The notes under the pieces were generated by a model. It was not told where the DNA came from. It saw only the letters and a program-made list of their open reading frames with translations, and did not search any database. Below are positions 391-19,960 of a DNA stretch of 20,000 nucleotides, piece by piece. The stretch is from the IMG/VR virus record IMGVR_UViG_3300037524_001600, one strand, 5' to 3'. The position numbers and the translations under genes were made by a program. How positions within the stretch are numbered: the stretch's first letter is position 1; the number at the start of each line of letters is the position of its first letter. This stretch comes from an uncultured virus (IMG/VR IMGVR_UViG_3300037524_001600) (Duplodnaviria; Heunggongvirae; Uroviricota; Caudoviricetes).

Positions 391-1056
391 TCATGTGGGC
401 GCACGCCTTAGCTGCCCGGCGGCGGCGCGTCGTAGTACTTCGTCCTGCGGTAGAGCGAATAGCGAAGAGCTGGATCCGGACGTATCGGGCGGCAAAGAGT
501 CCCCGGCCGAGCCCGTTCCGGTAGATGTTTTGGATTTGAACAGAAAGGAGTTGTTCTCGTCCTCGGCGAAAGTCTTGATGAAGTCAGGCACGCTGACGCC
601 GGATTTGTGCACCCACTCGCCCTGCTCGTTCTTGACGAGTAATGCCGTTATCTCCTTGAAGGCCATGTCGAACGACCTCGCGTTTCTGAAGGGCAGAGCC
701 TGCATCGCGCCCTTCACGGTGATGTCCCGCGTAAGCTCGATGTTCCTCTGCTCCAGCTCCTGCCTTGCCGCGCGCTCGGCCGCCAGCTCCTGCTCGAAGG
801 CCTCGCGATGCTTCCCCTCATCTTTCAGCCGCTGGACCTCGGCCGCGCGCAGATCCGCCTCGTACTTGGCCAGCTTCTTGATGGCCTCGTCCCGGGCTGC
901 GTACGCCTTGTCCAGATTCGCCTTTATCGGCGCCAGCTGCGCTTCCACGAGTTTCTGGAGGCGATCCTGCGAAGGGTCGCCTCCGGTATTCTCGCTCGAG
1001 CTCTCAGCGGACGATTCCGCCGCCGATTCTTCCGGTTTGCTCTCTGTATCGCTCAT
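391..1056 (-). CDS. Head scaffolding protein (221 aa)
   Basis: Start moved from 1119 to ATG 1056 (MSDTESKPEE), which follows GAGGAA. Acidic low-complexity N-terminus, long coiled coil and G/S-rich C-terminal linker (FLFKSKTSTGTGSAG); lies between the MuF gene and the capsid gene. Confidence 0.8.
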   Translation of the reverse strand: MSDTESKPEESAAESSAESSSENTGGDPSQDRLQKLVEAQLAPIKANLDKAYAARDEAIKKLAKYEADLRAAEVQRLKDEGKHREAFEQELAAERAARQELEQRNIELTRDITVKGAMQALPFRNARSFDMAFKEITALLVKNEQGEWVHKSGVSVPDFIKTFAEDENNSFLFKSKTSTGTGSAGDSLPPDTSGSSSSLFALPQDEVLRRAAAGQLRRAPT

Positions 1057-1151: not shown

Positions 1152-1167
1152 GGGTTAATTCAACGGG
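1152..1167 (-). promoter_or_regulatory. Candidate phage-specific promoter, copy upstream of scaffold/capsid
   Basis: Minus strand CCCGTTGAATTAACCC; 14/16 identical to 19605-19620; intergenic, about 95 nt upstream of the scaffold start. Confidence 0.55.
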
Positions 1168-1173
1168 GTGCGA

Positions 1174-4100
1174 TCAGTTGACTCCATACCACCCGAAATT
1201 CTCGAAGAAGTCGTCGGGAATTTCCCTGAGCACATCTTCCCTCGTCAAAATGTCCGAATCTTTCATCAGTTTCCCCCCGATTCTGGACTTGCCGGGGACC
1301 GGTATCAGGCCCAGTTCTATGGCCTCTTCCAGATACGCGTCGTATTTGGCCTTCGGCAGCCCCCTCGCCCTCATCTCGTCCAGAGTCAGCCTTATGACGT
1401 TTCTATCCATAGCCCTGGCATATATTTCCCGCAGGGCCGCCCGGGCCTTGATCATGTCGGCCGCGTTGGTGAAGAAAGCGTCGTGCACCGTGGACGTCTG
1501 CACGCCGCTGCCCCGGCCCCACAGATGGAACCGTTTGACCAGCACCGCGTCGTTGGAGTGATTGCCGTTCACCGCGAACGCCGTGCGGGCCTTGGTTGTG
1601 TCGGCGATGTCGTTGATCTTGCCCGACTTGTTGATGGCCTGCTCCCACCAAGTGGCCTCCGTCTTCTGCGGCACCTGTAGGATGTTCTTTATCCAGTTGC
1701 CGGCCTCGTCGCGGTAATTCAGCCGCTCCTCGAAGGACTGCGTGAAATGCTGCTCCAGCACTTTCCCGTCGAAATTGACCCAGGGCACGTTAGTCCAGCT
1801 CTTCGGGAGCTTGTTGGCATACAGGACCGGCACGCCGTCGAATCCGACCTCGCGGCCCAGCGCCCTCTTCTCGAAGTCGGGTATCGGTACGGGAAAGTCG
1901 AATTTGAGATAGGTGGCCCCGGTGCGCCTGGTCTCCGGAAGCTCCACGCCGTAAACTATGTCCCTCAGAGTGCCCTGCGGGTTCCAGAAGGCGAGCCGCT
2001 TGAGCAGCTTCTCGCTTACCGGCTCACCCGCCTTCAGGCCCAGCATCTCGCTGAGCCTGTCGGGCAGAACGTACCCCTTCTTCCTGGTGCCGAGCACGGC
2101 TATCTTTCCGATGGACTCCCAGTCGAATGCGGCCTGCGACGGCTTGGCCTCGTTCAGGAACTCCTCGGCCAGTCTTCCAAGGAACCGCGTGAAATTCTTC
2201 AGCACAGGGACCTGCTCCTGCAGGTGCTCGCTCATTATGGCCGCTATCTGCTTGAAGTCGTCCGGCGTCACGACGCGATCGTACGCGGAGGACATTTTGT
2301 CGACCAGGTCGCGCGTCTTGGAGTCCAGAAACCAGAGCTCCTCCATGATGTCCTCGCCGGGGCTCACGCCCCTGTCGAAGATGTCCTTGACATTCTTACG
2401 CAGCTGGGAGAGCTCCTCGTACAGCTCTGGGTCCAGCTTCTCGTACCTGGCCATCCTGGCCGATATCTCCGCCAGCACCGTGTCCCTGTCCGACGTCTTC
2501 ACGACGAGAGTTCCCGTGTCCTTCTCCAGGACCTTCGACAGCTTCCCCTCGACGTTCAGGGTGCCGGTGCGCTCCCCTGCGCCGTACAGAGTGACCATGT
2601 TCTGCGCCTTGGCGGCCTTCCGCAGGTCTTTCTCCGTCAGGCCCAGCCGCTCGTTCATGCGTCTGAACCTCGGATCGTTGTACGTGGCCGCCGCGATCTC
2701 GTCGTACAGGCGCTTCTTATAGGACGTGGGCACCACGTTGCTCAGCTCCGCCAGCTGCTTGTTCCGCGTGGTGAGGGCTATTATCTGCGCGCCGGAGGAC
2801 GAGGCATCCTGCTCCAGGGCCAGCGCGGTCCTATAGCCGGACAGCGTCTCAAGGGCGCCCTTGGTGTAGTCCCCCCTGAGAAAGTTGTCCAGTTTGGCCG
2901 TCTCCATGGCCAGACGGAAGAACTTACCCAGCTCCTCCCCATCCACTCGGGCCACCAGATCGGAGTCCAGCACGGCGCGTATGTCGTTGGGCTTTCCCCT
3001 GAGCATGTGATTTCCCAGGCGGACCAGCTCCGGCCTCCATCTCTCGGCGATCTTCTGCCTCCCCGTGAAGGTCAGCGAGTCGTGCCTCCCCTCGAAGTAA
3101 TCGCTCAGCCCGCCGAGAAAAGAGCCCACCTGGTCCTGGAAGTTTCGGAAGTCCCTCGGGCTGAACGCCTTCGCCTCCGCCGTGTTCAGGAACGGTCTGA
3201 ACGTCTCGCCCGCCTGCGGGCCGACCAGCCCGCGCTCGTAGATGCGCGCCCTGTGGTCCAGGAACGGCATGCTGGAGAACTTCTTGTCGCCGTCCACGAG
3301 CCATTCCATCGCCTTGAAGCGCTCGTAAGAGTCCCCGCGGGAGGCGATGTACTTCCGGTACGTGTTCAGGTCCTCGTACCTCTGCGCCGCGCCCCTGTCG
3401 TCCCGGAAGTATAGGAGCTTTCTCACGAAATCGTAGTAATCGCGGTCCACGCGGAACTCCGCCCTCGCGGCCCAGTTCAGGGCGTCCGCCATCTCCCGGT
3501 CGACGGCGGACTCGGGAAACTCCGAGAAGCTGGAGGAGGACACGATCGGGATACGGGTGTCCTCCAGGCCCAGAACACCTCTGTCCATGAAGTATGTCTT
3601 GTATCCGGGGCGCACTATGAGCCTGTTCTTCGGGTCCACGATGTTCACGCGCAGGCCCAGCTCCACCCGCCTGGACAGCGCCGCGTATTCCAGCAGCCGC
3701 TTGTCCCTGAGCTCCACGTAGTACGACAGCGTGTCGTAGTACGGACCGAAGTACTTGCCGCTCATTCTGCTCTTCATCCTGCGCTTCTGCACGCCGAAGG
3801 TCCCGAGCGAGAACAGCTTGTCCATCTTCTTGGCCTCCATCAGACGGAGACCCAGATTGAACCACTGATTCCTTGACCCGTTCAGATTGGCCATGTTGTA
3901 CAGGTCCCGGCCCAGTGAGACGGCCAGCGAGTCCCTGTCGGGCGAATCCGCCAGGCTGAGACGATGGGCGAACCGCAGGTAGAACTGCTGCAGGTCCCTC
4001 TCGGACAGTCTCGCCCTTATCTTCAGGGGAATCTTGTAGTCGAAGATGTCGCGCATCTCGCGGGCGATCTTCGGGGCCGTGCTGTCCTCCCAGAGATTCT

Positions 4101-5835
4101 TCGCCAGGATATTCCCGAGAAATCCGTCGTGCAGCTCCTGCAGGGAGGTCGCGCCGAGCACCGGATCTACGTACGCGTCCAGCTGCAGCTTGCGCAGCAC
4201 GTCCGAGTCCTTGCGTATCTGCGTCTCGATATAGTCCGACACGTTGGTCACGTCGAACTTCATCTGCGCGTTGGAGGCGGCCTTGAAGCTGACCCAGGGC
4301 TCCGGGTTCCGCCGGTACCTGGAGAACAGTATGCGCAGATTCTCCGCCACCACCGCTCTCTCGTTGACGCCCATGCGGTCCTCCAGGGCGGCCACGGTCT
4401 TCCCGATGAACTCCGCGTCCCGCGGGAGCAGGTCGGCGCTGTCCCCGACGCGCCTCATGGCGGACTCCAGAACCTCCGGTTTCGGCTGGTACACCCGCAC
4501 GTCGTCGTACCTGCGCGTGAACGGGTTGAACACCGTCTGATCCTCTCGCGGAGGCGACGCCAGCACCCGGTTCTTGGTGGCCCTCTTTACGTTGAGCAGC
4601 AGTCCCCTGTAGTTGGTCAGGGACAGATTACCGTCCAGGTCGCCTGACTGCAGCAGGTAGTAGTCCACGAGGGTGCGGGCCAGCCTGTCGTCCGAGATGA
4701 AGTCGTCCGGGGAGGAGGCGCCCAGCTGCATCGCGTCTAGACGCGCCTTGGCGGCGGCGAATCTGCGCGTGTCTCCGGGCACCAGGTATCCGGAGTCGGT
4801 CAACGCCCTGAGCTCCTTTATGCCCAGAGAGTTGCCCTCGTCATTGGTGAATTTGGACAGGTGCAGCTGCCCGCTCCTGAACAGGGATACCTTCTCGTAC
4901 TCCCCGAGGTGCCTCAGCTGAACCTCGCGCGTCTGTCTGGATAGCCAGTCGTGGTAGCTTTCCCGCATCGGTGTCTGGCCGTCGTAGTAGGCCATCTGCT
5001 GCCGCGTCAGGCCCCTAACGTTGTTCCGGCGCACCTGCGCCACGCCCTCCAGAGACGCTATGTCCGCCCAAGACTTGAACACCGGGACGGTGGTGGACCG
5101 GCAGTTGTAGTGAGCCGGCGGCAGGTGCTCCGTGTCCTCCGGGGGATACACGGTGCCGTCCCTGTGAGCGCACAGCGGGGTGGTCCTGGAGTCCAGTATG
5201 GCCACGTATTGCCACCCCCGTATGGCCCTGGCGTTGGCGGCGTACACGGCGTGATCCGCCTGGGCCCTGACGCTCGTGACGGCCGTGACCACCAGGGCCC
5301 TGGAATGCATGCGTGTTATCTTGTGCACGTTGCCGCGCCTGACCTCTCTGGCCATCTCCTCCATGCTCAGGCCCTCGGCCATCCCGCGGCGTATCAGCGC
5401 CTCTATCCTCTGACGCTCCGAGATGCTGACGCCCGCCCACCCGGCGGCCAGCGTCCTGTCCGAGTACAGCGGCCTCTGCAGGACTATCTCCTCGGACACG
5501 CGGCGCTCCGGGCGAGCCGTCCGCCAGATGCGGCCGACCGCGGCCTCCACGGTCTGGTACGCGTAGGAAAGCTGGTCGGAGGCCAGGTCCAGCAACGAGC
5601 GCCTGGTGACCGAGTACACCTCTCGGTACGTGCCCCTCAGCTCCCGGTCCACGGCCTCTCTGAGCCGCTCCAGCCCGCGCTGGGAGCGTTCCGCCTCCCG
5701 CACGAGGCGCTCCAGGCGCACAGCGTGGCCGTCCACAAGCAATTCCACCTTCCCGGCGACCCGCCTCTCGTACAGGCGGACCATCGCCGCGCGGTCCACG
5801 GCTCTGTCGAACACCGCCGTGTTGGCGTTGGTCAT
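1174..5835 (-). CDS. MuF/SPP1 gp7-like minor head protein fused to a T7-type single-subunit DNA-dependent RNA polymerase (1553 aa)
   Basis: N-terminal MuF signature WQYVAILDSRTTPLCAHRDG...PPAHYNCRST (aa ~205-248). C-terminal RNAP motifs in T7 order: DHRARIY (D860), motif A EQDASSSGAQ (D1010), motif B RKAAKAQNMVTLYG (R1072-x3-K1076-x7-Y1084-G), NGNHSNDA (H1426), motif C TVHDAF (D1452). One uninterrupted ORF with an ATGA overlap on the portal stop. Confidence 0.92.
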   Translation of the reverse strand: MTNANTAVFDRAVDRAAMVRLYERRVAGKVELLVDGHAVRLERLVREAERSQRGLERLREAVDRELRGTYREVYSVTRRSLLDLASDQLSYAYQTVEAAVGRIWRTARPERRVSEEIVLQRPLYSDRTLAAGWAGVSISERQRIEALIRRGMAEGLSMEEMAREVRRGNVHKITRMHSRALVVTAVTSVRAQADHAVYAANARAIRGWQYVAILDSRTTPLCAHRDGTVYPPEDTEHLPPAHYNCRSTTVPVFKSWADIASLEGVAQVRRNNVRGLTRQQMAYYDGQTPMRESYHDWLSRQTREVQLRHLGEYEKVSLFRSGQLHLSKFTNDEGNSLGIKELRALTDSGYLVPGDTRRFAAAKARLDAMQLGASSPDDFISDDRLARTLVDYYLLQSGDLDGNLSLTNYRGLLLNVKRATKNRVLASPPREDQTVFNPFTRRYDDVRVYQPKPEVLESAMRRVGDSADLLPRDAEFIGKTVAALEDRMGVNERAVVAENLRILFSRYRRNPEPWVSFKAASNAQMKFDVTNVSDYIETQIRKDSDVLRKLQLDAYVDPVLGATSLQELHDGFLGNILAKNLWEDSTAPKIAREMRDIFDYKIPLKIRARLSERDLQQFYLRFAHRLSLADSPDRDSLAVSLGRDLYNMANLNGSRNQWFNLGLRLMEAKKMDKLFSLGTFGVQKRRMKSRMSGKYFGPYYDTLSYYVELRDKRLLEYAALSRRVELGLRVNIVDPKNRLIVRPGYKTYFMDRGVLGLEDTRIPIVSSSSFSEFPESAVDREMADALNWAARAEFRVDRDYYDFVRKLLYFRDDRGAAQRYEDLNTYRKYIASRGDSYERFKAMEWLVDGDKKFSSMPFLDHRARIYERGLVGPQAGETFRPFLNTAEAKAFSPRDFRNFQDQVGSFLGGLSDYFEGRHDSLTFTGRQKIAERWRPELVRLGNHMLRGKPNDIRAVLDSDLVARVDGEELGKFFRLAMETAKLDNFLRGDYTKGALETLSGYRTALALEQDASSSGAQIIALTTRNKQLAELSNVVPTSYKKRLYDEIAAATYNDPRFRRMNERLGLTEKDLRKAAKAQNMVTLYGAGERTGTLNVEGKLSKVLEKDTGTLVVKTSDRDTVLAEISARMARYEKLDPELYEELSQLRKNVKDIFDRGVSPGEDIMEELWFLDSKTRDLVDKMSSAYDRVVTPDDFKQIAAIMSEHLQEQVPVLKNFTRFLGRLAEEFLNEAKPSQAAFDWESIGKIAVLGTRKKGYVLPDRLSEMLGLKAGEPVSEKLLKRLAFWNPQGTLRDIVYGVELPETRRTGATYLKFDFPVPIPDFEKRALGREVGFDGVPVLYANKLPKSWTNVPWVNFDGKVLEQHFTQSFEERLNYRDEAGNWIKNILQVPQKTEATWWEQAINKSGKINDIADTTKARTAFAVNGNHSNDAVLVKRFHLWGRGSGVQTSTVHDAFFTNAADMIKARAALREIYARAMDRNVIRLTLDEMRARGLPKAKYDAYLEEAIELGLIPVPGKSRIGGKLMKDSDILTREDVLREIPDDFFENFGWYGVN

Positions 5836-7373
5836 CTAGCAGGCGGCTTCGTCTCGGCAGACAATTCTGCCGCGTAGTCCATCTCCCGCGCCCTCTTCTC
5901 CAGCAGAATGTCCATGTCCGCCTGGATCTCCTGCATGCCCTGCTTGTCGTCGTACTCCGAGGGCAGCATGTCGTTCTGCTTGAGCAGCTGCAGCCAGACA
6001 GAGCGCGGGATCTTGCCCGAGTCGTACCACTCGGTGGCCAGCCTCAGCCAGTCGGCGCCCAGTGGCGTCTGGTTGAAGTCCTCGGAGAGCGTGCATGACA
6101 CCTCGGCGGCCGGAAACTCGGTGCCGTACCGCCAGGTCAGCATGAGGGAGATTACCTGCGACATAACGGCGCCCACGCGCTCGTTCAGGGACCCCAGCTG
6201 GGCCGTCTGCGCCGCGTTGCGCAGGTGCAGGGCCACCCCGGACTGGTCCGTCTCCGGCGTGAGCATACGGACGCCCAGCTTCGCTATCTCCTCTATCGAG
6301 GATGCGATCGCCCTGTCCATGTCCTGCAGCGCGGCGGTGGGGGTCTCCAGCACGCTGGCCTTCCCGTCCGGCGGCAGCTTCAGCCACGTGCCCAGCCCGC
6401 TCTCCACTATCTCGTCGAATTTCTCGTCAGTGATGTCGGCGCAGATGACCGGGGTATAGGTGGCCGCCCCGTACAGCAGGTGATTCCTGCGGCTCATCTT
6501 GTTGTACAGGGCCACCTCCTTGTTGATAATCGGCATGAGGGCGGGCTCCCTGGTGGCGATGCTGCCGTTCAGCGGCCAGGCCGGGATGTACGGCAGCGGC
6601 GCGCCCTCCATCAGCGGGACAACCGTCTCCTGCAGCACGAAGCCGGATTCTCCGGAGGCATTCTCCTCGGCCTGCGACTCGGGCTTCCTGTAGACCCTGA
6701 CGCGGTACGCGCCCCCCGACACGTCGTGGACGCGGACGGTGTCCACGAACCGCGGGTGGAACTCGTCCGACGCTCGGTCCTCCACCAGCTCTCTCGTGAC
6801 CACCATCCCGAGAACCAGCCTGCCGGTCATGTCCTTGTTGATCCGCCAGTTTATCACTTTCTCGGCTTTCCACACCACCGGATACGGCCTGTACTGCCTG
6901 CGCTCGTCCCGCGACAGATCCTCGTCCTCCACCTGGGGATAATCCACGTAGACCCAGGCCCTACTGGTCTGGATTTCCTCCCAGAGGGCCTCGTCCATGA
7001 ACGCCGACAGGGTGCAGCCGTCCTGGCCGAATTCCTTGAGTATCCACTCGGAGGCGTCTTCCGGAACTGACTCCGGCAGCGCGACCACCGGCGGCTTCCT
7101 GAGCAGCCCGCCCACCACCATCTTGGCGAACTCCGCCGTTATGCCCGGCAGCTCCGCCTCCGACCTGTACCAGTTGTACTGCGACTGGCTCATGGTCGGG
7201 GAGAACGGGGTCAGCAGATTGCTGAACGTGAACGAATCCAGGATCGCGTCCAGGCTCTTCACCGTCTGCTCCCCGGCGCACAGCGCTCTGGACCTCTTCC
7301 ACAGCGGCACCCTGCGCTGGTACTCCACGCACGGCGTCGCGACGGTCTTCACAGCTCCGGGGGCGACCGTCAT
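5832..7373 (-). CDS. Portal protein (DUF4055/SPP1-like type, 513 aa)
   Basis: Size, position immediately before MuF-scaffold-MCP, and segments resembling this portal family (RAWVYVDYP, RPYPVVWKAEKVINWR, PLPYIPAWPLNG, QSGVALHLR). Confidence 0.85.
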   Translation of the reverse strand: MTVAPGAVKTVATPCVEYQRRVPLWKRSRALCAGEQTVKSLDAILDSFTFSNLLTPFSPTMSQSQYNWYRSEAELPGITAEFAKMVVGGLLRKPPVVALPESVPEDASEWILKEFGQDGCTLSAFMDEALWEEIQTSRAWVYVDYPQVEDEDLSRDERRQYRPYPVVWKAEKVINWRINKDMTGRLVLGMVVTRELVEDRASDEFHPRFVDTVRVHDVSGGAYRVRVYRKPESQAEENASGESGFVLQETVVPLMEGAPLPYIPAWPLNGSIATREPALMPIINKEVALYNKMSRRNHLLYGAATYTPVICADITDEKFDEIVESGLGTWLKLPPDGKASVLETPTAALQDMDRAIASSIEEIAKLGVRMLTPETDQSGVALHLRNAAQTAQLGSLNERVGAVMSQVISLMLTWRYGTEFPAAEVSCTLSEDFNQTPLGADWLRLATEWYDSGKIPRSVWLQLLKQNDMLPSEYDDKQGMQEIQADMDILLEKRAREMDYAAELSAETKPPAR

Positions 7374-7563: not shown

Positions 7564-9687
7564 TCACGTTACCACGAAATATCTGGCGCCAGCCACCCGC
7601 GCCGCGGAGGTCTGGAAGCCAGCGCCTGCGAAAAACTGCGCGGAGGCGTCCGATCCCGAGTAGGACTCCCCGGCCTGCGCCGCACCCATCCCGTACGAGA
7701 CAGACACCTCCGAGTGCAGAGAGGCCTGCAGAGACAGGCCGGCCCCGGCCCCGTGGGCGGAAGAGGCCGCGAGGACCGCCCCCGCCGAGTACAGATCAGC
7801 GGCGCCCGCGGCGTGATCCGACGCCGCGCTCGCCGCGGAGTCCGTCTGGGAGAAGAATCCCGCCCCCGCCCCCGCGGCCAGCGCGGCCGGGAGTGCGGAG
7901 GAGGCCTGATGCGAGTGCCCGGCACCGACACCGTGCCCCGACAGCACGGGATAGGACGCGGACGGCTGGAACAGCGCGCCGGCCCCCGCCGGGCTCAGGA
8001 GGGTTACAGGCAGGGAAAGATCGCCGATGCTGATGCCGCCGGCCCCGGCGCCGAAGGACACCGACACACCGTACGAAGACTGCGTCCCGAAGGAGACGGC
8101 CGCGCCGACCGACACGGCGTGCGCCGCTGTGGAGCCGGTGTCGCCGTCCCCCGAGTACCCCGCACCCGCCGCCGCGGAGCACACCTCGTGGTACACGGCC
8201 GCGGTTCCGGCCGAGTAGCCGGCGCCGACTCGCCAGTCCTGAGACAGCTCCTGCGCCGCCGCGGAGGAGTCCGAGATCCCGGCGGACGAAGAATGGCTGC
8301 CCAGCAGGACGGCGACAGACAACGGATCGAACCCCGCGCCTGTCCGGCCCTCCGAGGACGCGACCAGGACGGAGGATCCCTGCGCAGTGCCCCCCGCCCC
8401 GGCCGCCGCGGACAGCGTCGCGGCCCGAACCACGTAGGAATCCGCCTGGAACCCTGCGCCCGAGGACGAGGAAGCCTCCGCCAGCACGGACGCGACGGCG
8501 ACCGCATAGGAAGAGACGCCCGCCCCGTGCTCGGAGGTTTCCTCCGACAGAGAATACAGCAAGAACGCGGAGGATGCCCCGGCCTGGGCGCCCGTCTCGG
8601 ACAGCAGTACCGCTGCGGCGGAGGCCGCGTCGGAGGCGCCCGAGGAGCCGCCCGCATCGGCCCGAAGGGCGGACTGCGCCGATACCGAGTCGGAGGCGCC
8701 GAGGGATTCCTGACCGGATGCCGCCGCGACCGACAGCGCGGCGACGATGTCCGAGGCCCCGGAAGATTCCTCCGCGGAGACGGAGAGCGCGGCGGAGGCC
8801 TGCGCCTGGGCTCCCGCCCCGGCCGCGGGCGCGTGCGTCCTGTTCTGGTCCGCGACCGCCTTGACGTCCAGGACCGCCCACGACACGCGGAGGTCCAGCG
8901 ACGCGCTCGGTATCACCGTACCGTCTGTAGACCCGGAGGCCGCCGCGCCGCCCGCATGGGCCGCGCCCAGCACCAGCGAGCCGGCGGCAGAGCCGGCCGG
9001 CGCGCCCCCGCTGCTGTGGTCGCCCGACAGAACGGGCGCCGCCGGCCTCACCGCGACGGTTATGGCGACCCACTCGTCCGAGGCCGAGATGGTGAACGAA
9101 TTGGGATTCTCGCTGGAGACCGCGTTGTCGCGCGTCGCCATGCCGAATCCGACGCCGTTTGTCGCGTTACTGACCGTCGTGGAATATTGATTATCCGCGT
9201 AACTGAGCGGCCACCCCGAGACTGTGCGGTTCGCGTCGCAGCCGAACGAGGCGATCCAGAGCGTGTCCTCTGTGACCCAGTTGGCCGGATCCAGCACGGG
9301 CGGATTGGGCGTGGTGCTGGTGCCGACGGCCACGTCGCCGACGACGGCGTCGGCCCAGGCGGATCCGCCGTACCACCCCGCCGCCGGGATCCGCGCGGTT
9401 CGGAATATCGCGGCCTCCGACGTGCCGGCGGTGACGTTGACCGTGGAGCCCTCGCTGCCGGTCGCCTTCTTCCCGTAGACTACGTGCAGGACCGCCGAGT
9501 TGTTCGTGCCGGCGATCAGGGTGTACTCGGTCGTCAGCGTCCCGGACAGCGCCGGATTGCCGTCGAACGTGCAGAACACCAGCAGCAGGTCGCCGGACGA
9601 GATCCCGGCGGGCAGCTGTATCGTGTGACTGGTACCGCTGGTCGCGTCGGTGCCGCTCGTGCTGGCGGCGATTGTAGGGAAGGCCAT
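7564..9687 (-). CDS. Putative virion fibre/decoration protein (707 aa): beta-rich N-terminal domain plus long Ala/Ser/Gly-rich quasi-repeat region
   Basis: Start moved to ATG 9687 (MAFPTIAAST), TGATG overlap with the upstream stop. N-terminus SHTIQLPAGISSGDLLLVF; C-terminal ~480 aa of recurring GAGAG/GASD units. Confidence 0.65.
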   Translation of the reverse strand: MAFPTIAASTSGTDATSGTSHTIQLPAGISSGDLLLVFCTFDGNPALSGTLTTEYTLIAGTNNSAVLHVVYGKKATGSEGSTVNVTAGTSEAAIFRTARIPAAGWYGGSAWADAVVGDVAVGTSTTPNPPVLDPANWVTEDTLWIASFGCDANRTVSGWPLSYADNQYSTTVSNATNGVGFGMATRDNAVSSENPNSFTISASDEWVAITVAVRPAAPVLSGDHSSGGAPAGSAAGSLVLGAAHAGGAAASGSTDGTVIPSASLDLRVSWAVLDVKAVADQNRTHAPAAGAGAQAQASAALSVSAEESSGASDIVAALSVAAASGQESLGASDSVSAQSALRADAGGSSGASDAASAAAVLLSETGAQAGASSAFLLYSLSEETSEHGAGVSSYAVAVASVLAEASSSSGAGFQADSYVVRAATLSAAAGAGGTAQGSSVLVASSEGRTGAGFDPLSVAVLLGSHSSSAGISDSSAAAQELSQDWRVGAGYSAGTAAVYHEVCSAAAGAGYSGDGDTGSTAAHAVSVGAAVSFGTQSSYGVSVSFGAGAGGISIGDLSLPVTLLSPAGAGALFQPSASYPVLSGHGVGAGHSHQASSALPAALAAGAGAGFFSQTDSAASAASDHAAGAADLYSAGAVLAASSAHGAGAGLSLQASLHSEVSVSYGMGAAQAGESYSGSDASAQFFAGAGFQTSAARVAGARYFVVT

Positions 9688-10304
9688 CAGACGCTCGCCA
9701 CGAATTCCAGGTCCAGCGCGGTGTAGTCCGAGATCGCGTCGCGCTGCTCGCCGGTCAGCTCCAGCACGCGCACGTCGTCGGCCGCGAGATCGGCGATGAC
9801 CCACTCGGCGATCTGCGCGGCGCCGGAGTGCAGGCGCACGGTCAAAGTGCCGCTCGGCGTGTAGCCTGCCGGCGAGGCGACGGCGATCGCGTGCAGTGTG
9901 GGGCCGGGATCGTCGAGCTGCGTCAGCGCGACGCGCGCGGTGGCGGCGCCGGTGGCGCGGATGTAGCTCGCGTCGTCGCGGGCGTGCTCGTCCAGCGCCT
10001 CGTACAGCGACGCCTCCGTAGACGTCCAGCCGGAATTGGAGTCGTCGGCGACCGGGCGCCCGAAGCGGGCGTGCAGGGCGGACGACGCGGAGCCGGCGGT
10101 CGCCGGAACGACATCCGCGCCGAATAACGCGAGCGACGGCACCATAGCAACAGACGCAATGACCTGTGAGTCATGCGATCCGGTAAGTATTGCGCCGCCG
10201 CTGTCTGTCTCGTTAAAAAATGGGCCGCCCGGGACCTGGAATTCCAGCCCGCTCTGCCCATCGTCGATGAACGGGCCGCCTGGAATCTGGTACTGGAGCC
10301 CCAT
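9687..10304 (-). CDS. Putative virion structural or fibre-associated protein (205 aa)
   Basis: Likely ATG 10304 (MGLQYQIPGGPF), 7 nt after the upstream stop; tandem N-terminal repeat GLQYQIPGGPFIDD / GLEFQVPGGPFFNE. Confidence 0.6.
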   Translation of the reverse strand: MGLQYQIPGGPFIDDGQSGLEFQVPGGPFFNETDSGGAILTGSHDSQVIASVAMVPSLALFGADVVPATAGSASSALHARFGRPVADDSNSGWTSTEASLYEALDEHARDDASYIRATGAATARVALTQLDDPGPTLHAIAVASPAGYTPSGTLTVRLHSGAAQIAEWVIADLAADDVRVLELTGEQRDAISDYTALDLEFVASV

Positions 10305-10311
10305 CTCGGCA

Positions 10312-11895
10312 TCAACTGACAATCAATTGAGGGTTGGCGTATACGGTCTTGCTTGCCTTGAACAGCCGCAACCGGCCGACGAACGGACCGATCTCCTGCG
10401 GCGTGAACGTCACCGACACTTTCTGCTTATTCGGATTGCTTATTCCGGTCGTCGTCCACGTCGCACCGCTTGAGGGCAGGTCCGAGCCGAGCGCAGGATA
10501 ATCCGGTGCGCTAGAATACCAGCGGCCGTACGGAGTGCCAGATGTCGTCAGCGCGATGACCTCTAGCACGAGATCGCTCGCTTTCAAAGCGGTAGCGGAG
10601 TCGTGCAGCAGCTCGACAGTAACCGTAACCGACGAGCCGACCGCCGTATTGAACGGCGAAACCAATTCGCCGGAATTCAGCGAAGTTGCCGGAAACGACG
10701 CTGCGGAGTTGGAGGCCAACGCCCACGAGATCGGCGTGACGCCGTTCGAAGCGCCGCCGGTCATGACCCGCGTCGTCTCGCTGACCACGGAACCGACGCC
10801 GGTATGCCGCGCCTTTCGGTACTGCGTGTCAGCGGAGTCGCAGTTGTCCATGTCAACAATCACTTCCGGTCCCGTGACGGAAGTAACGACGCCGGCCAGA
10901 GAGGCGTTCAGCTTGCACGACCTGAACAGTATCCGCGCAGTTCCCGTTGTGTTTATTCCGCTGACCAAATAGCAGCCCGATCCGAGTCCCGTCAGGTCGT
11001 ACCCGTCCGCGACACAGACAGCCCCGTTCACGTTGGGGGCGAACAGGCTCACAGGCACGTCGGACAAGGCGTGAAACAGCGGCAGGGCCGAGAAAGAGCG
11101 CAGCGTCAGAGACTGCGACTGCACCGAGAAGGCGTAATTGCCGAATGACGAGAAATAGAACTGGACATCCTCAAGGATTACGTCATGCCTGTCGTCGCGG
11201 CCAGCCGCGCCCACCGAGCATTGGACGCCCGTCCCGGTCGCGGTGTTCCTGATGAGCGAGCGCCGAATGGTGGTTCCCTCATTGGCCGCCGCCTGCGCGA
11301 CCGAGAGGTTGTAATTCGCGTTCTGCGCGTTGCCGAACTCGTAGTCGATCCCGTCGATGAACAGCGCCCCCTGAATCGACGCCGACCCGCTGTAGGTGGT
11401 TGTCACCTTCGCCCCTTCGGCAAAGGCCGTCGGCGGCGCGGCCGAGTCGTCAACGGAAATGGCCTTGACTGGATTGGTTGCGGTGCTCGGACCTACGAGC
11501 GCAAGCTGCACCGCGGTGCTCTCGTTGTGCGAGCTAGATACCCACACGTTATCGCCAGCCGCCAGCATGCCTGACGATCCGCACACGTACATCATGATCG
11601 GCGTGGCAAATGTCCAGTCCGCCGTCGTGCCGCTGCTGAATCCCGGCTGCCGCGCCCTGAAGACCGCGGTTCCGCTCGTCACCGTCGTTGAGTCCTTCGT
11701 GACGGAGGCGGGCCATGTCGGATTGCCCGCCGCGGTCGTTCCTGCGGTTGTGCACTCCCAAACCCACCGTCTCGCGATGCCGTAGTTCGTGCCGGTGTCA
11801 CCCGTGGCCGGCACGATCCGCTGCCCGGTCGAGTACGCGGTCGAGGCGGCGAATTGCGTGACGCCGCTGCCAGACTTCACGTAGTAGTCGGCCAT
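10312..11895 (-). CDS. Putative receptor-binding/tail spike-like protein (527 aa)
   Basis: Thr/Ser/Gly-rich and beta-rich; N-terminal FAASTAYSTGQRIVP...WVWECTTAGTT...PTWP module of the kind seen in phage fibres; central part looks like beta-helix repeats. TGATG overlap with the upstream gene. Confidence 0.6.
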   Translation of the reverse strand: MADYYVKSGSGVTQFAASTAYSTGQRIVPATGDTGTNYGIARRWVWECTTAGTTAAGNPTWPASVTKDSTTVTSGTAVFRARQPGFSSGTTADWTFATPIMMYVCGSSGMLAAGDNVWVSSSHNESTAVQLALVGPSTATNPVKAISVDDSAAPPTAFAEGAKVTTTYSGSASIQGALFIDGIDYEFGNAQNANYNLSVAQAAANEGTTIRRSLIRNTATGTGVQCSVGAAGRDDRHDVILEDVQFYFSSFGNYAFSVQSQSLTLRSFSALPLFHALSDVPVSLFAPNVNGAVCVADGYDLTGLGSGCYLVSGINTTGTARILFRSCKLNASLAGVVTSVTGPEVIVDMDNCDSADTQYRKARHTGVGSVVSETTRVMTGGASNGVTPISWALASNSAASFPATSLNSGELVSPFNTAVGSSVTVTVELLHDSATALKASDLVLEVIALTTSGTPYGRWYSSAPDYPALGSDLPSSGATWTTTGISNPNKQKVSVTFTPQEIGPFVGRLRLFKASKTVYANPQLIVS

Positions 11896-12416: not shown

Positions 12417-13034
12417 TCAGCCCACGTCCAGAGACAGCGACACGCTAACATTGAGCTGGTCGCCGTCGCCGGAGATCACCTTGTCGGACGAAAACGCCGC
12501 GACGGAGTAGATCAGGCCCGTCGTCGCGTACCGGGTGCCCGCCGAGGCCACGAAGCTGCCCTTCAGCGTGCCGGCCTCCGTGAAGACGAAGTTGACGGCG
12601 GAGGAGGAGTCCAGCACCACGGGATCGGCGTTCGTGGGCTCCCCGAACGAGACCGTGCCGCGGGCGGTGCCGGCCGGGGTGTCGTAGTTGGGAGCCTGCG
12701 ACGCCCCGGCCTCGCGCCAGCCGTTGCTGCCGGCGATCTGCGCCGCGGTGTCGGTCTTGGCTATCGCCGTGTAGCTCACCGACGATATCAGGCCTATATA
12801 CCACGTGGTCACCTGCGTCGCGCCGTCGAAGCCGACGTCCAGCAGGTGCTGGCCGCCCTCCTGCGTGACGAGGTTCCCGACGGTCCAGTCGTCCAGCAGG
12901 ATCCCCCGCCTGTCGAGGTGCTTGAAGCGGAAGGAGAAGTGCGGCGCGCGGGCGCGTCCCGGGGCGCGATGCCTTTCGGCCAGTACTAGGCCCGCCCTCG
13001 CGGTCATGCCCGCTCTGAGCTTTCTCATGCGCAC
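12417..13034 (-). CDS. Virion structural protein, paralogue B (about 205 aa; start may be ATG 13028)
   Basis: Shares W-x3-N-x-VT-x-EG-x2-LLDV-x-FD-x-ATQ-x-T-x-WY-x-GLISS-x-SYT and APNYDTPAGT with 13039..13656. Confidence 0.7.
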   Translation of the reverse strand: MRMRKLRAGMTARAGLVLAERHRAPGRARAPHFSFRFKHLDRRGILLDDWTVGNLVTQEGGQHLLDVGFDGATQVTTWYIGLISSVSYTAIAKTDTAAQIAGSNGWREAGASQAPNYDTPAGTARGTVSFGEPTNADPVVLDSSSAVNFVFTEAGTLKGSFVASAGTRYATTGLIYSVAAFSSDKVISGDGDQLNVSVSLSLDVG

Positions 13035-13038
13035 CCCG

Positions 13039-13656
13039 TCACGGCGTGTAGACCAGATCGAGGGACACGGTGACCGTGACCTTCAGCTGGTCGTTGTCCA
13101 CCACGGCCTTGTCTCCCGAGAACAGCGCGGCGGAATAGAGCGGTGCGGTCGTGGAGAGCCGGGTCGCCCCGGCCGCGATGAATGCGCCCTTCACGGTCCC
13201 GGTGTTGGAGAACGTGATGTCCACGGTGGCGGACGACGACAGGCTGACGGGGTCAGTGCCGGTCGGCTCCGCGAACGAGATCTGCGCCCGATCGGTGCCC
13301 GCCGGCGTGTCGTAGTTCGGCGCGTACGTGGCGGAGCACTCGGCCCAGCCGTTCCCCGCGGCCGACAGGCTCGCCGCCGTGTTGCCGATGGCGGGAGGGG
13401 TCGTGTAGGAGGCCGAGGAGATCAGCCCCAGGTACCACGACGTGATCTGCGTCGCGGCGTCGAAGTACACGTCGAGCAGAGAGTAGGCCCCCTCCGTGGT
13501 TACGATGTTCTCGGCGGACCATCGGTCTATCTCCAGCCCGCCGCGCAGGTGCACGAACTCGTAGCGGAACCTGGGCACCGCGCTGAACGCGCCGCTCCCG
13601 GCTCCGCGGACCGCCCGCGCCTCGGCGGTCATGCCGATCTTTCCGTTGTCTTTCAA
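13039..13656 (-). CDS. Virion structural protein, paralogue A (205 aa)
   Basis: TTG start after GGGAG; beta-rich; tandem paralogue of 12417..13034. Confidence 0.7.
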   Translation of the reverse strand: MKDNGKIGMTAEARAVRGAGSGAFSAVPRFRYEFVHLRGGLEIDRWSAENIVTTEGAYSLLDVYFDAATQITSWYLGLISSASYTTPPAIGNTAASLSAAGNGWAECSATYAPNYDTPAGTDRAQISFAEPTGTDPVSLSSSATVDITFSNTGTVKGAFIAAGATRLSTTAPLYSAALFSGDKAVVDNDQLKVTVTVSLDLVYTP

Positions 13657-17688: not shown

Positions 17689-19041
17689 TCAGAAACCGAA
17701 GCCCCGGGAAGCCACCTTCTGCCCCCTGCGTATCGGAAAGAGGTACTCCACGGCGTAGCGGACGCCGTCCGAGAAATGCTCCACACCCTCCTTCTTGTCT
17801 AGGGTGGCCGTGTCCGGGTTATTCTCAGACCAGGAGGTGCGCTCCAGGGACGCTATCAGGCCGGTGCACCTGGGATGCACGTACATCCTTACGTCCCCGG
17901 CCGCCGTCTTCAGCAGGCGGTTCACCGCGGCGACGCTGTCCACGATCGGAGGGGCCGACTGCCTGGACAGGCACTGTATTCCGTGCGATTCCAAGATGCT
18001 GAAGTCCGTCTGGCCCACCGGGGCGGACGTCTTCCTGGCCTTTCCGGACGGGTCCGGGTAGCCGAAGATCCTGTGACCGCGGTACCTCTCCTTCAGGGCC
18101 ACGGCCAGCGTCTCGGTGTCCGGATGGCCCTTGAACTCCTCCAGCCAGTGCGCCTGCTTGCCCCTGAGGGCGAATGCGGACGAGCACTGCAGGCCCACGT
18201 TGAAGTCTATGCAGACGTGGACGTCCTCGCCGTCCCTGGCCCTGTCGCCCGAGGGCGGCCTGAAGTCCTCCAGGTCCCTGCGGACGTGCACGGACCTGTC
18301 GAAGCAGTAGAAGACGTTATTGCCGGAGCCCTTGAAGCTGGCCTCGTACTCTCGGGCGAACTCCAGCGGGTCCACCGTGTGACGTATCCGATCGATCTCC
18401 TCCGCGTCCAGGAACGGGGAGGACCTGTAGTCGTACCTGTAGGACCGCCACTCGGGATCGATCTCCCTGAAATTGTACATGTCGTACAGGAAGTCGTAGC
18501 CCTTCGGGGTGGACACCGCAAGGGCTCTGCCCGGGGACTTCGCGCCGAGCTCCGCGGCCCTCTTCCTGGACCACCTAGTCAGCACGGTGGGCTGCAGTAT
18601 GCCCTCCCACGCCTCCCTCGGGGTGAGCCCGCGCCTCCACGAGGCCAGCTCGTCCAGGGCCAGGAAGTAGGCGCCCTTGCCGCGCATCCTCTCGACGGCC
18701 TCGTAGGACACGAGCCTTAGCTCCACGTTCCTGCCGAACATGAACCTGCCGTCGTCCCTAGAGGCCTTGGCCAGGCGTCCCTCCATGCCCAGCTCGTACA
18801 TGATCAGCGGCCAGTAGATGTCCGTGACCTGGTCGTACGTCGGCGCGACGATGTAGGCGTACTTGTTGGGCACGCTCCAGTCCAGCTCCAGCAGCTCGTA
18901 GCACGCCGCCACGGCGCAGGTGGCCGTCAGGTACGACTTGCCCCAGCCCCTGGAGCAGACCACCACGGAGAATCTCGCCTTCCTGTCCACGAACAGGTCC
19001 GAGAACACCTCGGACTGCCCGGGGTGCAGGTCTATGCTCAC
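17689..19041 (-). CDS. terL: Terminase large subunit (450 aa)
   Basis: Start moved to GTG 19041 (GTGA overlap with the upstream stop). LHPGQ motif, Walker A VVCSRGWGKS, Walker B FLALDE, coupling motif STPKG, RNase H-like nuclease motifs CIDFN and HFSDGVRY. Confidence 0.95.
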   Translation of the reverse strand: MSIDLHPGQSEVFSDLFVDRKARFSVVVCSRGWGKSYLTATCAVAACYELLELDWSVPNKYAYIVAPTYDQVTDIYWPLIMYELGMEGRLAKASRDDGRFMFGRNVELRLVSYEAVERMRGKGAYFLALDELASWRRGLTPREAWEGILQPTVLTRWSRKRAAELGAKSPGRALAVSTPKGYDFLYDMYNFREIDPEWRSYRYDYRSSPFLDAEEIDRIRHTVDPLEFAREYEASFKGSGNNVFYCFDRSVHVRRDLEDFRPPSGDRARDGEDVHVCIDFNVGLQCSSAFALRGKQAHWLEEFKGHPDTETLAVALKERYRGHRIFGYPDPSGKARKTSAPVGQTDFSILESHGIQCLSRQSAPPIVDSVAAVNRLLKTAAGDVRMYVHPRCTGLIASLERTSWSENNPDTATLDKKEGVEHFSDGVRYAVEYLFPIRRGQKVASRGFGF

Positions 19042-19466
19042 GGGCGGGAGGCCAGGTTTATCACCAGCGGCGCCGCGTTGCTCTCCACATTGACCGTCTC
19101 GGGCACGCGCCCGTAGCCGTACCGCAGCAGGGACTCCCCGACGCGGATCATCTGCTCCCTGACCGCCGCGTGCGCCTGCGCGCTGTACCTGCGGGCGTTC
19201 CCGTTGCCGTCCAGGGGCGTGATATCGCCGCGCTGCCACCTCTCGTAGCGCTCGTTGTCGGCCCTAAGCTTCTCGTACAGGTTGACGAGCTCTTTTATGG
19301 GGTCGTATCTGAGCTCCGACAGCCTGGCCACGGACCTGAGACCTCCTCTGGGGAATCGCTCCTGCCTCACCGGAGAATACTTTTCCGGCATCCTCGGCTC
19401 GTCCGGGAAATCCTTGCAAATCAGCGGGATGCCGGCTTCCCCTTGCGTTTCATGGCGGTCCGTCAT
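19038..19466 (-). CDS. terS: Probable terminase small subunit (142 aa)
   Basis: Immediately upstream of and coupled to terL; helical core ending in a beta-like tail (APLVINL); SD GAGGGG. Mainly a positional call. Confidence 0.65.
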   Translation of the reverse strand: MTDRHETQGEAGIPLICKDFPDEPRMPEKYSPVRQERFPRGGLRSVARLSELRYDPIKELVNLYEKLRADNERYERWQRGDITPLDGNGNARRYSAQAHAAVREQMIRVGESLLRYGYGRVPETVNVESNAAPLVINLASRP

Positions 19467-19585: not shown

Positions 19586-19960
19586 TCATCTGGGAGGGCT
19601 CTCCGGGTTAACCCAACGGGCTCGGGATGACGCGGGCGCGCCTCCCGCGCAGTAGACCCTCCTCTCCCACCGGTCCTTGCACAACCTGCCGGCGCAGCTC
19701 TTGTGCTCGTTCGGCAGCCACTGCATGTTGTGCGGCGCGTCGCATCCCCCGCACGCCAGAGGCACCACGTGGTCCACCGACCACCCGGGGCATGGTCCGG
19801 ACGGCAGCCCCGTGGCGGGGCACGCGTACATGCCCCTGAACAGCTGCCTCTCGGCCGCGCTCCTCCGTATCTCCCCACGGGCGTCCCTGGGGACCGCGGC
19901 GGGGTCGTGACACACTCTGGGGTCGGCCAGCAGCGCGGCCAGCAGCAGGATCTCGGTCAA
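19586..19960 (-). CDS. HNH endonuclease-family protein (124 aa)
   Basis: VDHVVPLACGGCDAPHNMQWL is an HNH core, preceded by CPATG...CPGW; TTG start after GGAGGG. Confidence 0.75.
   Translation of the reverse strand: MTEILLLAALLADPRVCHDPAAVPRDARGEIRRSAAERQLFRGMYACPATGLPSGPCPGWSVDHVVPLACGGCDAPHNMQWLPNEHKSCAGRLCKDRWERRVYCAGGAPASSRARWVNPESPPR
19605..19620 (-). promoter_or_regulatory. Candidate phage-specific promoter, copy upstream of the terminase unit
   Basis: Minus strand CCCGTTGGGTTAACCC followed by GGAGAG; 14/16 identical to 1152-1167; about 140 nt upstream of the terS start, inside the 3' tail of the HNH ORF. Confidence 0.5.

Follow-up and report, generated by a model that had tools for sequence, protein, structure and literature searches.

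The DNA studied here, a stretch of 20,000 nucleotides (the window) from an uncultured member of the Caudoviricetes (IMG/VR record IMGVR_UViG_3300037524_001600), contains one uninterrupted open reading frame on the minus strand (1174..5835, including the stop codon at 1174-1176) which codes for a protein of 1553 amino acids. This gene encodes the only MuF (SPP1 gp7-type) minor head protein of the phage, joined to a T7-type RNA polymerase (RNAP). Judging from its sequence, from structural models and by analogy with characterised phages, we consider it likely that the fused protein is loaded into the capsid, injected and used in an early transcription relay. The phage would thus probably carry its own transcription enzyme in the capsid and inject this enzyme along with its DNA. 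The window is part of a source record of 36,389 bases, which is estimated to be about 52% complete and whose genes were all placed on the minus strand by codon-position GC content and family matches; the coordinates of all features of the window given below refer to this strand.

A first-pass annotation made without database searches had proposed a MuF domain in the first 350 or so residues and RNAP motifs further on, and both domains were recovered by profile searches. Pfam identified Phage_Mu_F (PF04233) at residues 142-249 (E 2e-14; 54.7 bits, with a curated cut-off of 29.6) and RNA_pol (PF00940) with an E value of 6.5e-11 (42.1 bits, with a cut-off of 22). In PHROGs, the head morphogenesis family phrog_241 matched across residues 1-345 (E 4.9e-64) and the RNA polymerase family phrog_414 matched with an E value of 5.6e-18, the RNA polymerase families lying around residues 996-1099. 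The protein is accordingly divided into a MuF/SPP1-gp7-like head module of residues 1-348 (4792..5835, with the Pfam core at 5089-5412), a flexible hinge of residues 349-355 (4771..4791), a helical extension of residues 356-562 (4150..4770), and a complete T7-type single-subunit RNAP of residues 563-1553 (1177..4149), comprising N-terminal domain, palm, fingers, thumb and C-terminal end. The head module carries the predicted segments DSRTTPLC (residues 215-222) and PPAHYNCRS (residues 239-247), and its residues T187, N201, D215, T218, C222, P239, P240, H242, C245, R246 and S247 are invariant in the alignment of relatives. An AlphaFold model of residues 1-600 had a mean predicted local distance difference test (pLDDT) score of 85.9 and contained one internal disordered segment, residues 349-355, the only one with a pLDDT below 50, which in the model would act as the hinge separating the MuF module from the remainder. 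Comparing this model with the PDB by Foldseek gave no match at E <=0.001, hence no solved counterpart within reach of this search for either the MuF module or the extension, which shows no known fold and is N-terminal to the part superposing on T7 RNAP. A complex prediction for the portal (513 residues) and the MuF module (350 residues), with a 20-row alignment for each, scored 0.16 against a mark of 0.32 and is uninformative either way. Because the MuF module is located at the N-terminus, the C-terminal end of the polymerase is left free, and it is conserved in the family (consensus WYGxGx). T7 RNAP requires a free C-terminus.

The polymerase part was analysed in an AlphaFold2 model of residues 381-1553 (pLDDT 81.6, predicted template modelling score 0.76). 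Structural alignment by VIA-align yielded T7 RNAP with a Z score of 29.2 and a root-mean-square deviation of 5.6 over 575 aligned residues (model residues 186-1173 versus T7 residues 35-883), followed by the yeast and human mitochondrial RNAPs (Z 25-28), the N4 mini-virion RNAP (3c2p_B; Z 19.4) and N4 RNAPII (Z 14.2). All 50 entries listed were single-subunit RNAPs, and they spanned only model residues 183-1173. The possibility that this part is a family A DNA polymerase, which the first-pass annotation had named as a potential pitfall, was rejected because no DNA polymerase was present among these 50 entries and because motif B retains the Tyr-Gly of T7. Foldseek likewise placed the model with the human mitochondrial and T7 RNAPs at E values of about 1e-18 (6.5e-18). 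At the sequence level, searching PDB chains with the single sequence gave marginal matches only (E 0.07) and a profile was needed: a family profile of 31 members detected T7 RNAP at an E value of 2.7e-24, aligning motifs A, B and C as well as H784. Since the polymerase is closer to the T7 and mitochondrial RNAPs than to the N4 virion RNAP (Z 29 versus 19), it agrees with the earlier suggestion of a separate route to a virion-borne RNAP.

The motifs were found where they had been predicted and could be assigned to their T7 equivalents. The segment DHRARIY (residues 860-866; 3238..3258) aligned to the D-W-R-G-R-V-Y segment of T7 RNAP and has the family form DxRGRxY, the catalytic Asp of motif A (D1010; 2806..2808) aligned to T7 D537, and motif B (RKAAKAQNMVTLYG; residues 1072-1085, R1072-x3-K1076-x7-Y1084-G1085; 2581..2622) aligned to T7 R627, K631, Y639 and G640. 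In the segment NGNHSND (residues 1423-1429; 1549..1569), H1426 corresponds to T7 H784, and H1451-D1452 of motif C (1480..1485) correspond to T7 H811-D812. Both catalytic Asp residues are present, and D1010, K1073, K1076, Y1084, G1085, D1429 and D1452 are invariant in all 31 aligned sequences, which share 73% to 20% identity with the window protein; R1072 lies outside the invariant columns. About 200 extra residues, modelled with low confidence, are inserted between motif B and H1426. With all catalytic residues retained, sequence and model predict a catalytically intact T7-type enzyme.

The fusion proved to be widespread. A word-indexed search returned 372 protein clusters at E <=0.001 among 8000 scored candidates, and 116 of the 119 best metagenomic relatives, which were listed, contained both PF04233 and PF00940; the other three matched RNA_pol only and may be truncated (1096-1302 residues). 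An exhaustive search of 1.84 billion representatives gave 156 matches at E <=0.001, of which the long distant ones aligned from about their own residue 700 onward, indicating that their N-terminal part is long as well. MuF is present in all 30 full-length members of the alignment, down to about 20% identity, and RNA_pol was detected at E <=0.001 in 27 of the 31 members. A relative is encoded on each of 62 viral contigs, and the GC content of the related loci ranges from 32% to 55%, compared to 59-74% in this window. Among deposited phages, only four records cover the whole protein, namely EBPR siphovirus 1 (59% identity), roseophage DSS3_VP1 (two records) and DSS3_PM1 (32%). The DSS3_VP1/DSS3_PM1 homologue (QGH74596.1) is annotated only as "minor head protein-like protein", that of EBPR siphovirus 1 as "head protein" plus "hypothetical protein" (gp47 and gp49). 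An assembly error can be dismissed as the origin of the fusion, since nearly all of the best relatives and two isolates with sequenced genomes have both domains in one protein.

In several relatives, the polymerase part is broken at fixed places, which correspond to residues 988-999 (approximately), 1075-1084 (motif B), 1105-1109, 1424/1425 (NHSND) and 1452/1453 (motif C). Eight of these breaks contain group I introns scoring above the Rfam threshold, in six of the nine loci searched (L018, L020, L046, L059, L066 and L072), some of them with HNH genes. In EBPR siphovirus 1 (L001, 12176-12402), the element that splits the gene at motif B carries an HNH gene and matches group I introns below the threshold (40.5 bits), and the depositors therefore annotated one gene as gp47, gp48 (HNH) and gp49. 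The copy in the window carries no intron. Such a placement of homing elements within catalytic motifs is consistent with an enzyme that is essential and conserved.

The genomic context is that of a head protein. The portal gene (5832..7373; phrog_145, E 3.2e-65) overlaps the start of the MuF-RNAP gene by 4 nucleotides, and the scaffold gene (391..1056; phrog_206) follows with a likely ATG start at 1056-1054 preceded by a GAGGAA ribosome site, while the gene for the major head protein lies just past the low end of the window, in the record outside it; the slot between portal and capsid genes was thus correctly recognised in the first-pass annotation, which had not stated the strand. This is the slot that holds gp7/MuF in SPP1-like phages, and by its position within the portal-adjacent head operon the gene is a late gene. 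The order of portal and MuF-RNAP gene is the same in 42 of 65 related loci, these being the loci where both genes were found whole. In each of the five records searched (own record, G001, G002, G003 and DSS3_VP1, of which four are complete or almost complete), this gene was the sole MuF match, and the head role of MuF therefore falls to the fused protein. The protein contains two cysteines only, C222 and C245, both inside the invariant motifs of the MuF module. The following 1308 residues are free of cysteine, as is also the case in 121 of 128 full-length relatives. Among the other proteins of this phage, tape measure, capsid and scaffold have no cysteine, the terminase nine and the portal five. 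The ordinary RNAPs of G001, G002 and DSS3_VP1 contain eight, nine and seven cysteines, respectively; in phage N4, gp50 has none in 3500 residues and the RNAPII subunits have four and nine.

A second, ordinary RNAP of about 740 residues, which matches PF00940 strongly (E 1e-66 to 1e-82), is encoded by DSS3_VP1, where it is already annotated as "RNA polymerase", by G001 and G002 (both 100% complete), by G005 and by the 74-kb contig of G011. In G004 (92% complete), the gene is interrupted and represented by two matching pieces, the better one with an E value of 7.6e-33. No match was obtained in five records which are only 50-68% complete and thus uninformative, and the records behind L026, L031, L056 and L059 are left out of this tally. 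The ordinary enzymes score 218-272 bits with PF00940, compared to 42 for the fused enzyme. A recent duplication of the phage's own RNAP was considered and rejected because the fused and ordinary enzymes of one genome share only 29% identity over 52 residues in BLASTP and align with an E value of 1.2e-8 in hhalign. All genes are co-directional in G001 and DSS3_VP1, and small genes form a block which begins right behind the tail genes and precedes the ordinary RNAP gene (at about 35.8-42.4 kb in the DSS3_VP1 record). The presence of a second RNAP behind the early-gene block in most complete relatives suggests a polymerase relay.

G001 carries two strand-specific classes of intergenic repeats, a 19-mer and a 22-mer. 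The 19-mer, ACCCCGTTAAATTAACCCT, occurs in seven copies in G001 (before scaffold and capsid genes, replication genes and the early block) and in six copies in G002, but not in G003, and 18 of 41 evaluable loci have it at most 900 nucleotides downstream of the fused gene. At the same place in the window, 6 nucleotides after the stop codon of the MuF-RNAP gene, we recognised the promoter-like motif CCCGTTGAATTAACCC (1152..1167) against a background of 59-74% GC, and a weaker copy with two mismatches is located upstream of the small gene preceding the large terminase gene (19605..19620). Two or more matches to this motif were found in none of 200 shuffles. Searching for repeats within the window alone revealed no promoter-like family, and the motif at 1152-1167 was recognised only by transfer from complete relatives. 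The 19-mer is assigned to the ordinary RNAP because both are present in five genomes and both are absent in one; the 19-mer and the motif at 1152-1167 most likely represent the candidate promoter of this enzyme, as far as can be judged from sequence, and the latter leads us to expect an ordinary RNAP gene in the missing half of this genome. The 22-mer, GTATCTTATATGAAGTACAATA, is an exact repeat present in G001 (52996, 53885, 54599), G005 (1217, 2106, 3279) and G002 (64051), and is repeated only within the small-gene block that precedes the gene for the ordinary RNAP, the G001 copies all lying in the last 1.7 kb before this gene. We regard the 22-mer as a candidate early promoter, possibly of the fused enzyme, this assignment being a guess. 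Another motif of 14 to 16 bases, ATAGGGTGCGTTAAAG, was observed in six copies in DSS3_VP1 (MN602266; 19202, 19237, 45926, 46393, 46551 and 59196) by scanning the plus strand at positions 12251-75087; two of these are placed just before the portal gene, and the motif is a candidate phage-RNAP promoter.

Four results, namely the sole MuF gene, the late position of the gene, the cysteine-free polymerase and the second RNAP, favour a capsid-loaded and injected enzyme. During head assembly, the MuF module would bind to the portal and bring the 172-kDa protein, in low copy number, into the interior of the procapsid, like SPP1 gp7. During infection, the fused protein would exit the head with the DNA, refold and, with no need of the host RNA polymerase, transcribe the first genes. 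Among these would be, in most relatives and probably also in the missing half of this genome, the gene of the ordinary T7-like RNAP of 740 residues, an enzyme which would then read the separate and highly conserved promoter ACCCCGTTAAATTAACCCT and its variants before the replication, scaffold and capsid genes. Two polymerases would thus act in relay, as they do in phage N4, with other components taking their places. Packaging, ejection and independence from host RNAP had already been proposed for this frame, and we infer them here by analogy: in SPP1, gp7 reaches the procapsid interior via a strong interaction with the portal, at low copy number, and it supports the start of infection; toxins fused to gp7-like proteins have been proposed to travel by this route as well (PMC6316719).

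Several points weigh against this interpretation. SPP1 gp7 is dispensable, and for most fusions the co-ejection of MuF and cargo is described as proposed rather than shown (PMC6316719). The 172-kDa protein would need to pass unfolded down a very long tail, given a tape measure protein of 2999 residues. G003 (67,865 bases, 98% complete) contains neither a second RNAP nor, by exact k-mer counts, any repeated promoter-like motif, and the relay is therefore not universal. The own record, only about 52% complete, lacks the early region. Repeat analysis gave no assignable promoter for the fused enzyme: the 22-mer is present in only three of five genomes tested and absent from G004 and G011. The search for unfused forms covered proteins of at least 854 residues. 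Finally, the Naomiviridae paper contains none of the terms "RNA polymerase", "MuF" or "virion" (PMC8323127).

These points have to be balanced against other explanations for the same gene. The polymerase may act late and never be injected, either staying free or being cut at the hinge to boost late transcription while MuF alone serves the head. The position in the late head operon, the hinge at residues 349-355 as a conceivable cleavage site, and the existence of G003-type phages without another RNAP, in which the enzyme may transcribe beyond the early genes, would all suit such a role. We nevertheless consider it unlikely because a cytoplasmic enzyme has no reason to lose all its cysteines, of which the free RNAPs of related genomes keep seven to nine, because no prohead protease was recognised between the portal and capsid genes, and because the retention of the fusion in 30 of 30 distant full-length relatives argues that both parts must stay joined; the late position itself is shared with N4 gp50, which is likewise a late gene. 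To a similarly small degree, we expect that the protein is packaged and injected for a main task other than gene expression, serving as a transcription motor for genome entry or as a primer-synthesising enzyme of DNA replication. Single-subunit RNAPs fulfil such tasks in other systems, driving genome entry in T7 and N4 and priming replication in mitochondria and T7, and the co-directional gene order would suit transcription-driven entry. No origin-like element was found beside a candidate promoter, and this role would be compatible with early transcription and probably combined with it, as nothing here separates the two.

Two further explanations are much less plausible. The polymerase part could be an inactive structural or DNA-binding relic, serving as bulk cargo or as a head-internal protein, as might be suspected from the weak Pfam score for an RNAP (42 bits) and the roughly 200 low-confidence residues between motif B and H1426; invariant catalytic residues in 31 sequences at 20-73% identity, a fold spanning all of T7 RNAP and homing introns targeting the catalytic motifs make this very improbable. 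That two genes were joined by an error in sequencing or assembly, for which we found no argument, is refuted by the uninterrupted architecture in 116 of 119 independent protein clusters, on 62 viral contigs and in two sequenced isolates. We therefore return to the capsid-loaded, injected RNAP as the preferred explanation.

Regarding the remaining genes of the record, transcription proceeds from an HNH endonuclease-like gene and a small gene over the large terminase gene (17689-19239) and about 20 small or unassigned genes to the portal gene, then via the 1553-residue fusion gene to the genes for scaffold, major head protein, adaptor, tail terminator, major tail protein and a tape measure protein of 2999 residues. 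This gene order identifies the phage as a long-tailed siphovirus. The tape measure proteins of the group are very long (2999 residues in the own record at G000:C1:89-9088, outside the window, and 4352 residues in G001 at 20077-33135), and the corresponding gene of G002 appears to cross the contig ends via tandem repeats of 105 nucleotides; such lengths imply unusually long tails. Upstream of the portal gene, the window contains genes for an Ala/Ser/Gly-rich repetitive protein of 746 residues (7564-9804) and a protein of 527 residues (10312-11895), both without family match, which may be tail fibre or host-recognition proteins, as well as two adjacent paralogous genes for proteins of 205 residues (12417-13034 and 13039-13656), both belonging to phrog_8123 of unknown function. 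Directly before the ribosome-binding site of the scaffold gene, two hairpins with a Y-G-T loop were observed (1069-1079 and 1091-1101; GAGT-TGT-ACTC and CGGC-TGT-GCCG). Hairpins of this type occur at the same place in the relatives (L002 and L013-L088): within the last 100 nucleotides before the scaffold gene and on the coding strand only, at least one was found in 37 of 39 loci and at least two in 28, and their stems vary between loci yet remain paired. They probably act at the RNA level, as an element in the leader of the scaffold/capsid mRNA; a function as N4-like hairpin promoters was set aside because there is essentially one site per genome, abutting the ribosome-binding site. Searching genome contigs with the single protein gave two loci, both from one metagenome bin, and no sign of a host or prophage.

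If the preferred explanation is correct, MuF can load and deliver an active enzyme of 130 kDa, which would widen the range of its cargo from small toxins to a large enzyme and bears on the engineering of phages for protein delivery. On a broader scale, and with only slightly better than even confidence, we propose that a very large and globally spread group of long-tailed phages (GC 32% to 66%, including the Naomviridae with deoxyuridine-containing (dU) DNA) invented a virion RNAP independently of N4, by placing a T7-type enzyme on the MuF capsid-loading module, and that their early transcription, in G003-type members perhaps all transcription, is independent of host RNAP. This would represent a further independent solution for a virion RNAP, shared by a cultured family of marine phages and by hundreds of clusters of uncultured siphoviruses, and it would predict rifampicin-resistant early transcription. 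It would also explain the unannotated "minor head protein" of 1500 residues and may explain the first reading of the dU-containing Naomviridae genomes. DSS3_VP1 and its host Ruegeria pomeroyi DSS-3 make the proposal directly testable, and biotechnology would gain a new family of deeply diverged single-subunit RNAPs along with their promoters, likewise new.

Packaged and injected RNAPs for early genes are a feature of crAss-like phages and of jumbo phages of the phiKZ/AR9 type, whose enzymes are of the two-barrel (multisubunit) type rather than T7-type and are not fused to MuF. Known virion-borne RNAPs come from few lineages, the N4-like, crAss-like and jumbo phages. For the Chimallinviridae, an injected virion polymerase for early genes is stated in PMC12390700. 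The sections seen of Iyer et al. 2017 list many MuF fusions, name no RNAP among them, and state that virion RNAP modules are restricted to N4-like phages (PMC5512222), and the word "polymerase" occurs nowhere in Jamet et al. 2017 (PMC5576092). Two later papers mentioning the phages described here contain neither "RNA polymerase" nor "RNAP" (PMC12669031, PMC12697855), and a search of full-text literature, with subscription journals and bioRxiv supplements outside its range, found no description of a MuF-RNAP fusion. A virion RNA polymerase as MuF cargo is apparently widespread and undescribed. Genuine homologues, alike in architecture and in the position of the gene, are those of the Naomviridae DSS3_VP1 and DSS3_PM1 (32% identity) and of EBPR siphovirus 1 (59%).

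With SPP1 gp7, Mu F and the polymorphic MuF toxins of temperate phages, the protein shares an N-terminal MuF module encoded beside the portal gene and, as in the toxins, a C-terminal cargo (PMC5576092, PMC5512222, PMC6316719). Here, however, the cargo is a polymerase of 1200 residues and not a small toxin, RNase or ADP-ribosyltransferase; the C-terminal part being an RNAP, the protein is not a MuF toxin. The next downstream gene is that for the scaffold. With T7 RNAP and the free phage RNAPs of PF00940, it shares the entire fold, motifs A, B and C, H784 and the Tyr of motif B. These enzymes have 740-890 residues, are free, made early and contain cysteines (seven to nine in the ordinary RNAPs of related genomes), whereas the fused enzyme is located behind a head protein, would be made late, is longer by some 200 residues between motif B and H1426, and has a weak Pfam score.

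N4 gp50 resembles the fused protein in being a single-subunit RNAP encoded among late virion genes, in lacking cysteines and in being accompanied by a second T7-like RNAP, encoded in the N4 early region. Its packaging and injection for early transcription are established, and it differs by its size of 3500 residues, its own N-terminal injection and C-terminal encapsidation regions, a zincin-like (metallopeptidase-like) domain and the absence of MuF (PMC5512222). The fused protein of 1553 residues contains only the MuF and RNA_pol domains and does not match this architecture, its polymerase is structurally nearer to T7 RNAP (Z 29.2) than to the N4 mini-virion RNAP (Z 19.4), and N4 is a podovirus, unlike the long-tailed phages carrying the fused gene. 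With the family profile, N4 RNAPII gave no more than a weak match (E 1e-6), and gp50 was not among the matches at E <=0.01. By its architecture, the fused protein is outside the N4 gp50 family. Functionally, the nearest system is N4 gp50 with the N4 relay, while the polymerase forms a deep branch nearer to the T7 and mitochondrial enzymes and the carrier is MuF.

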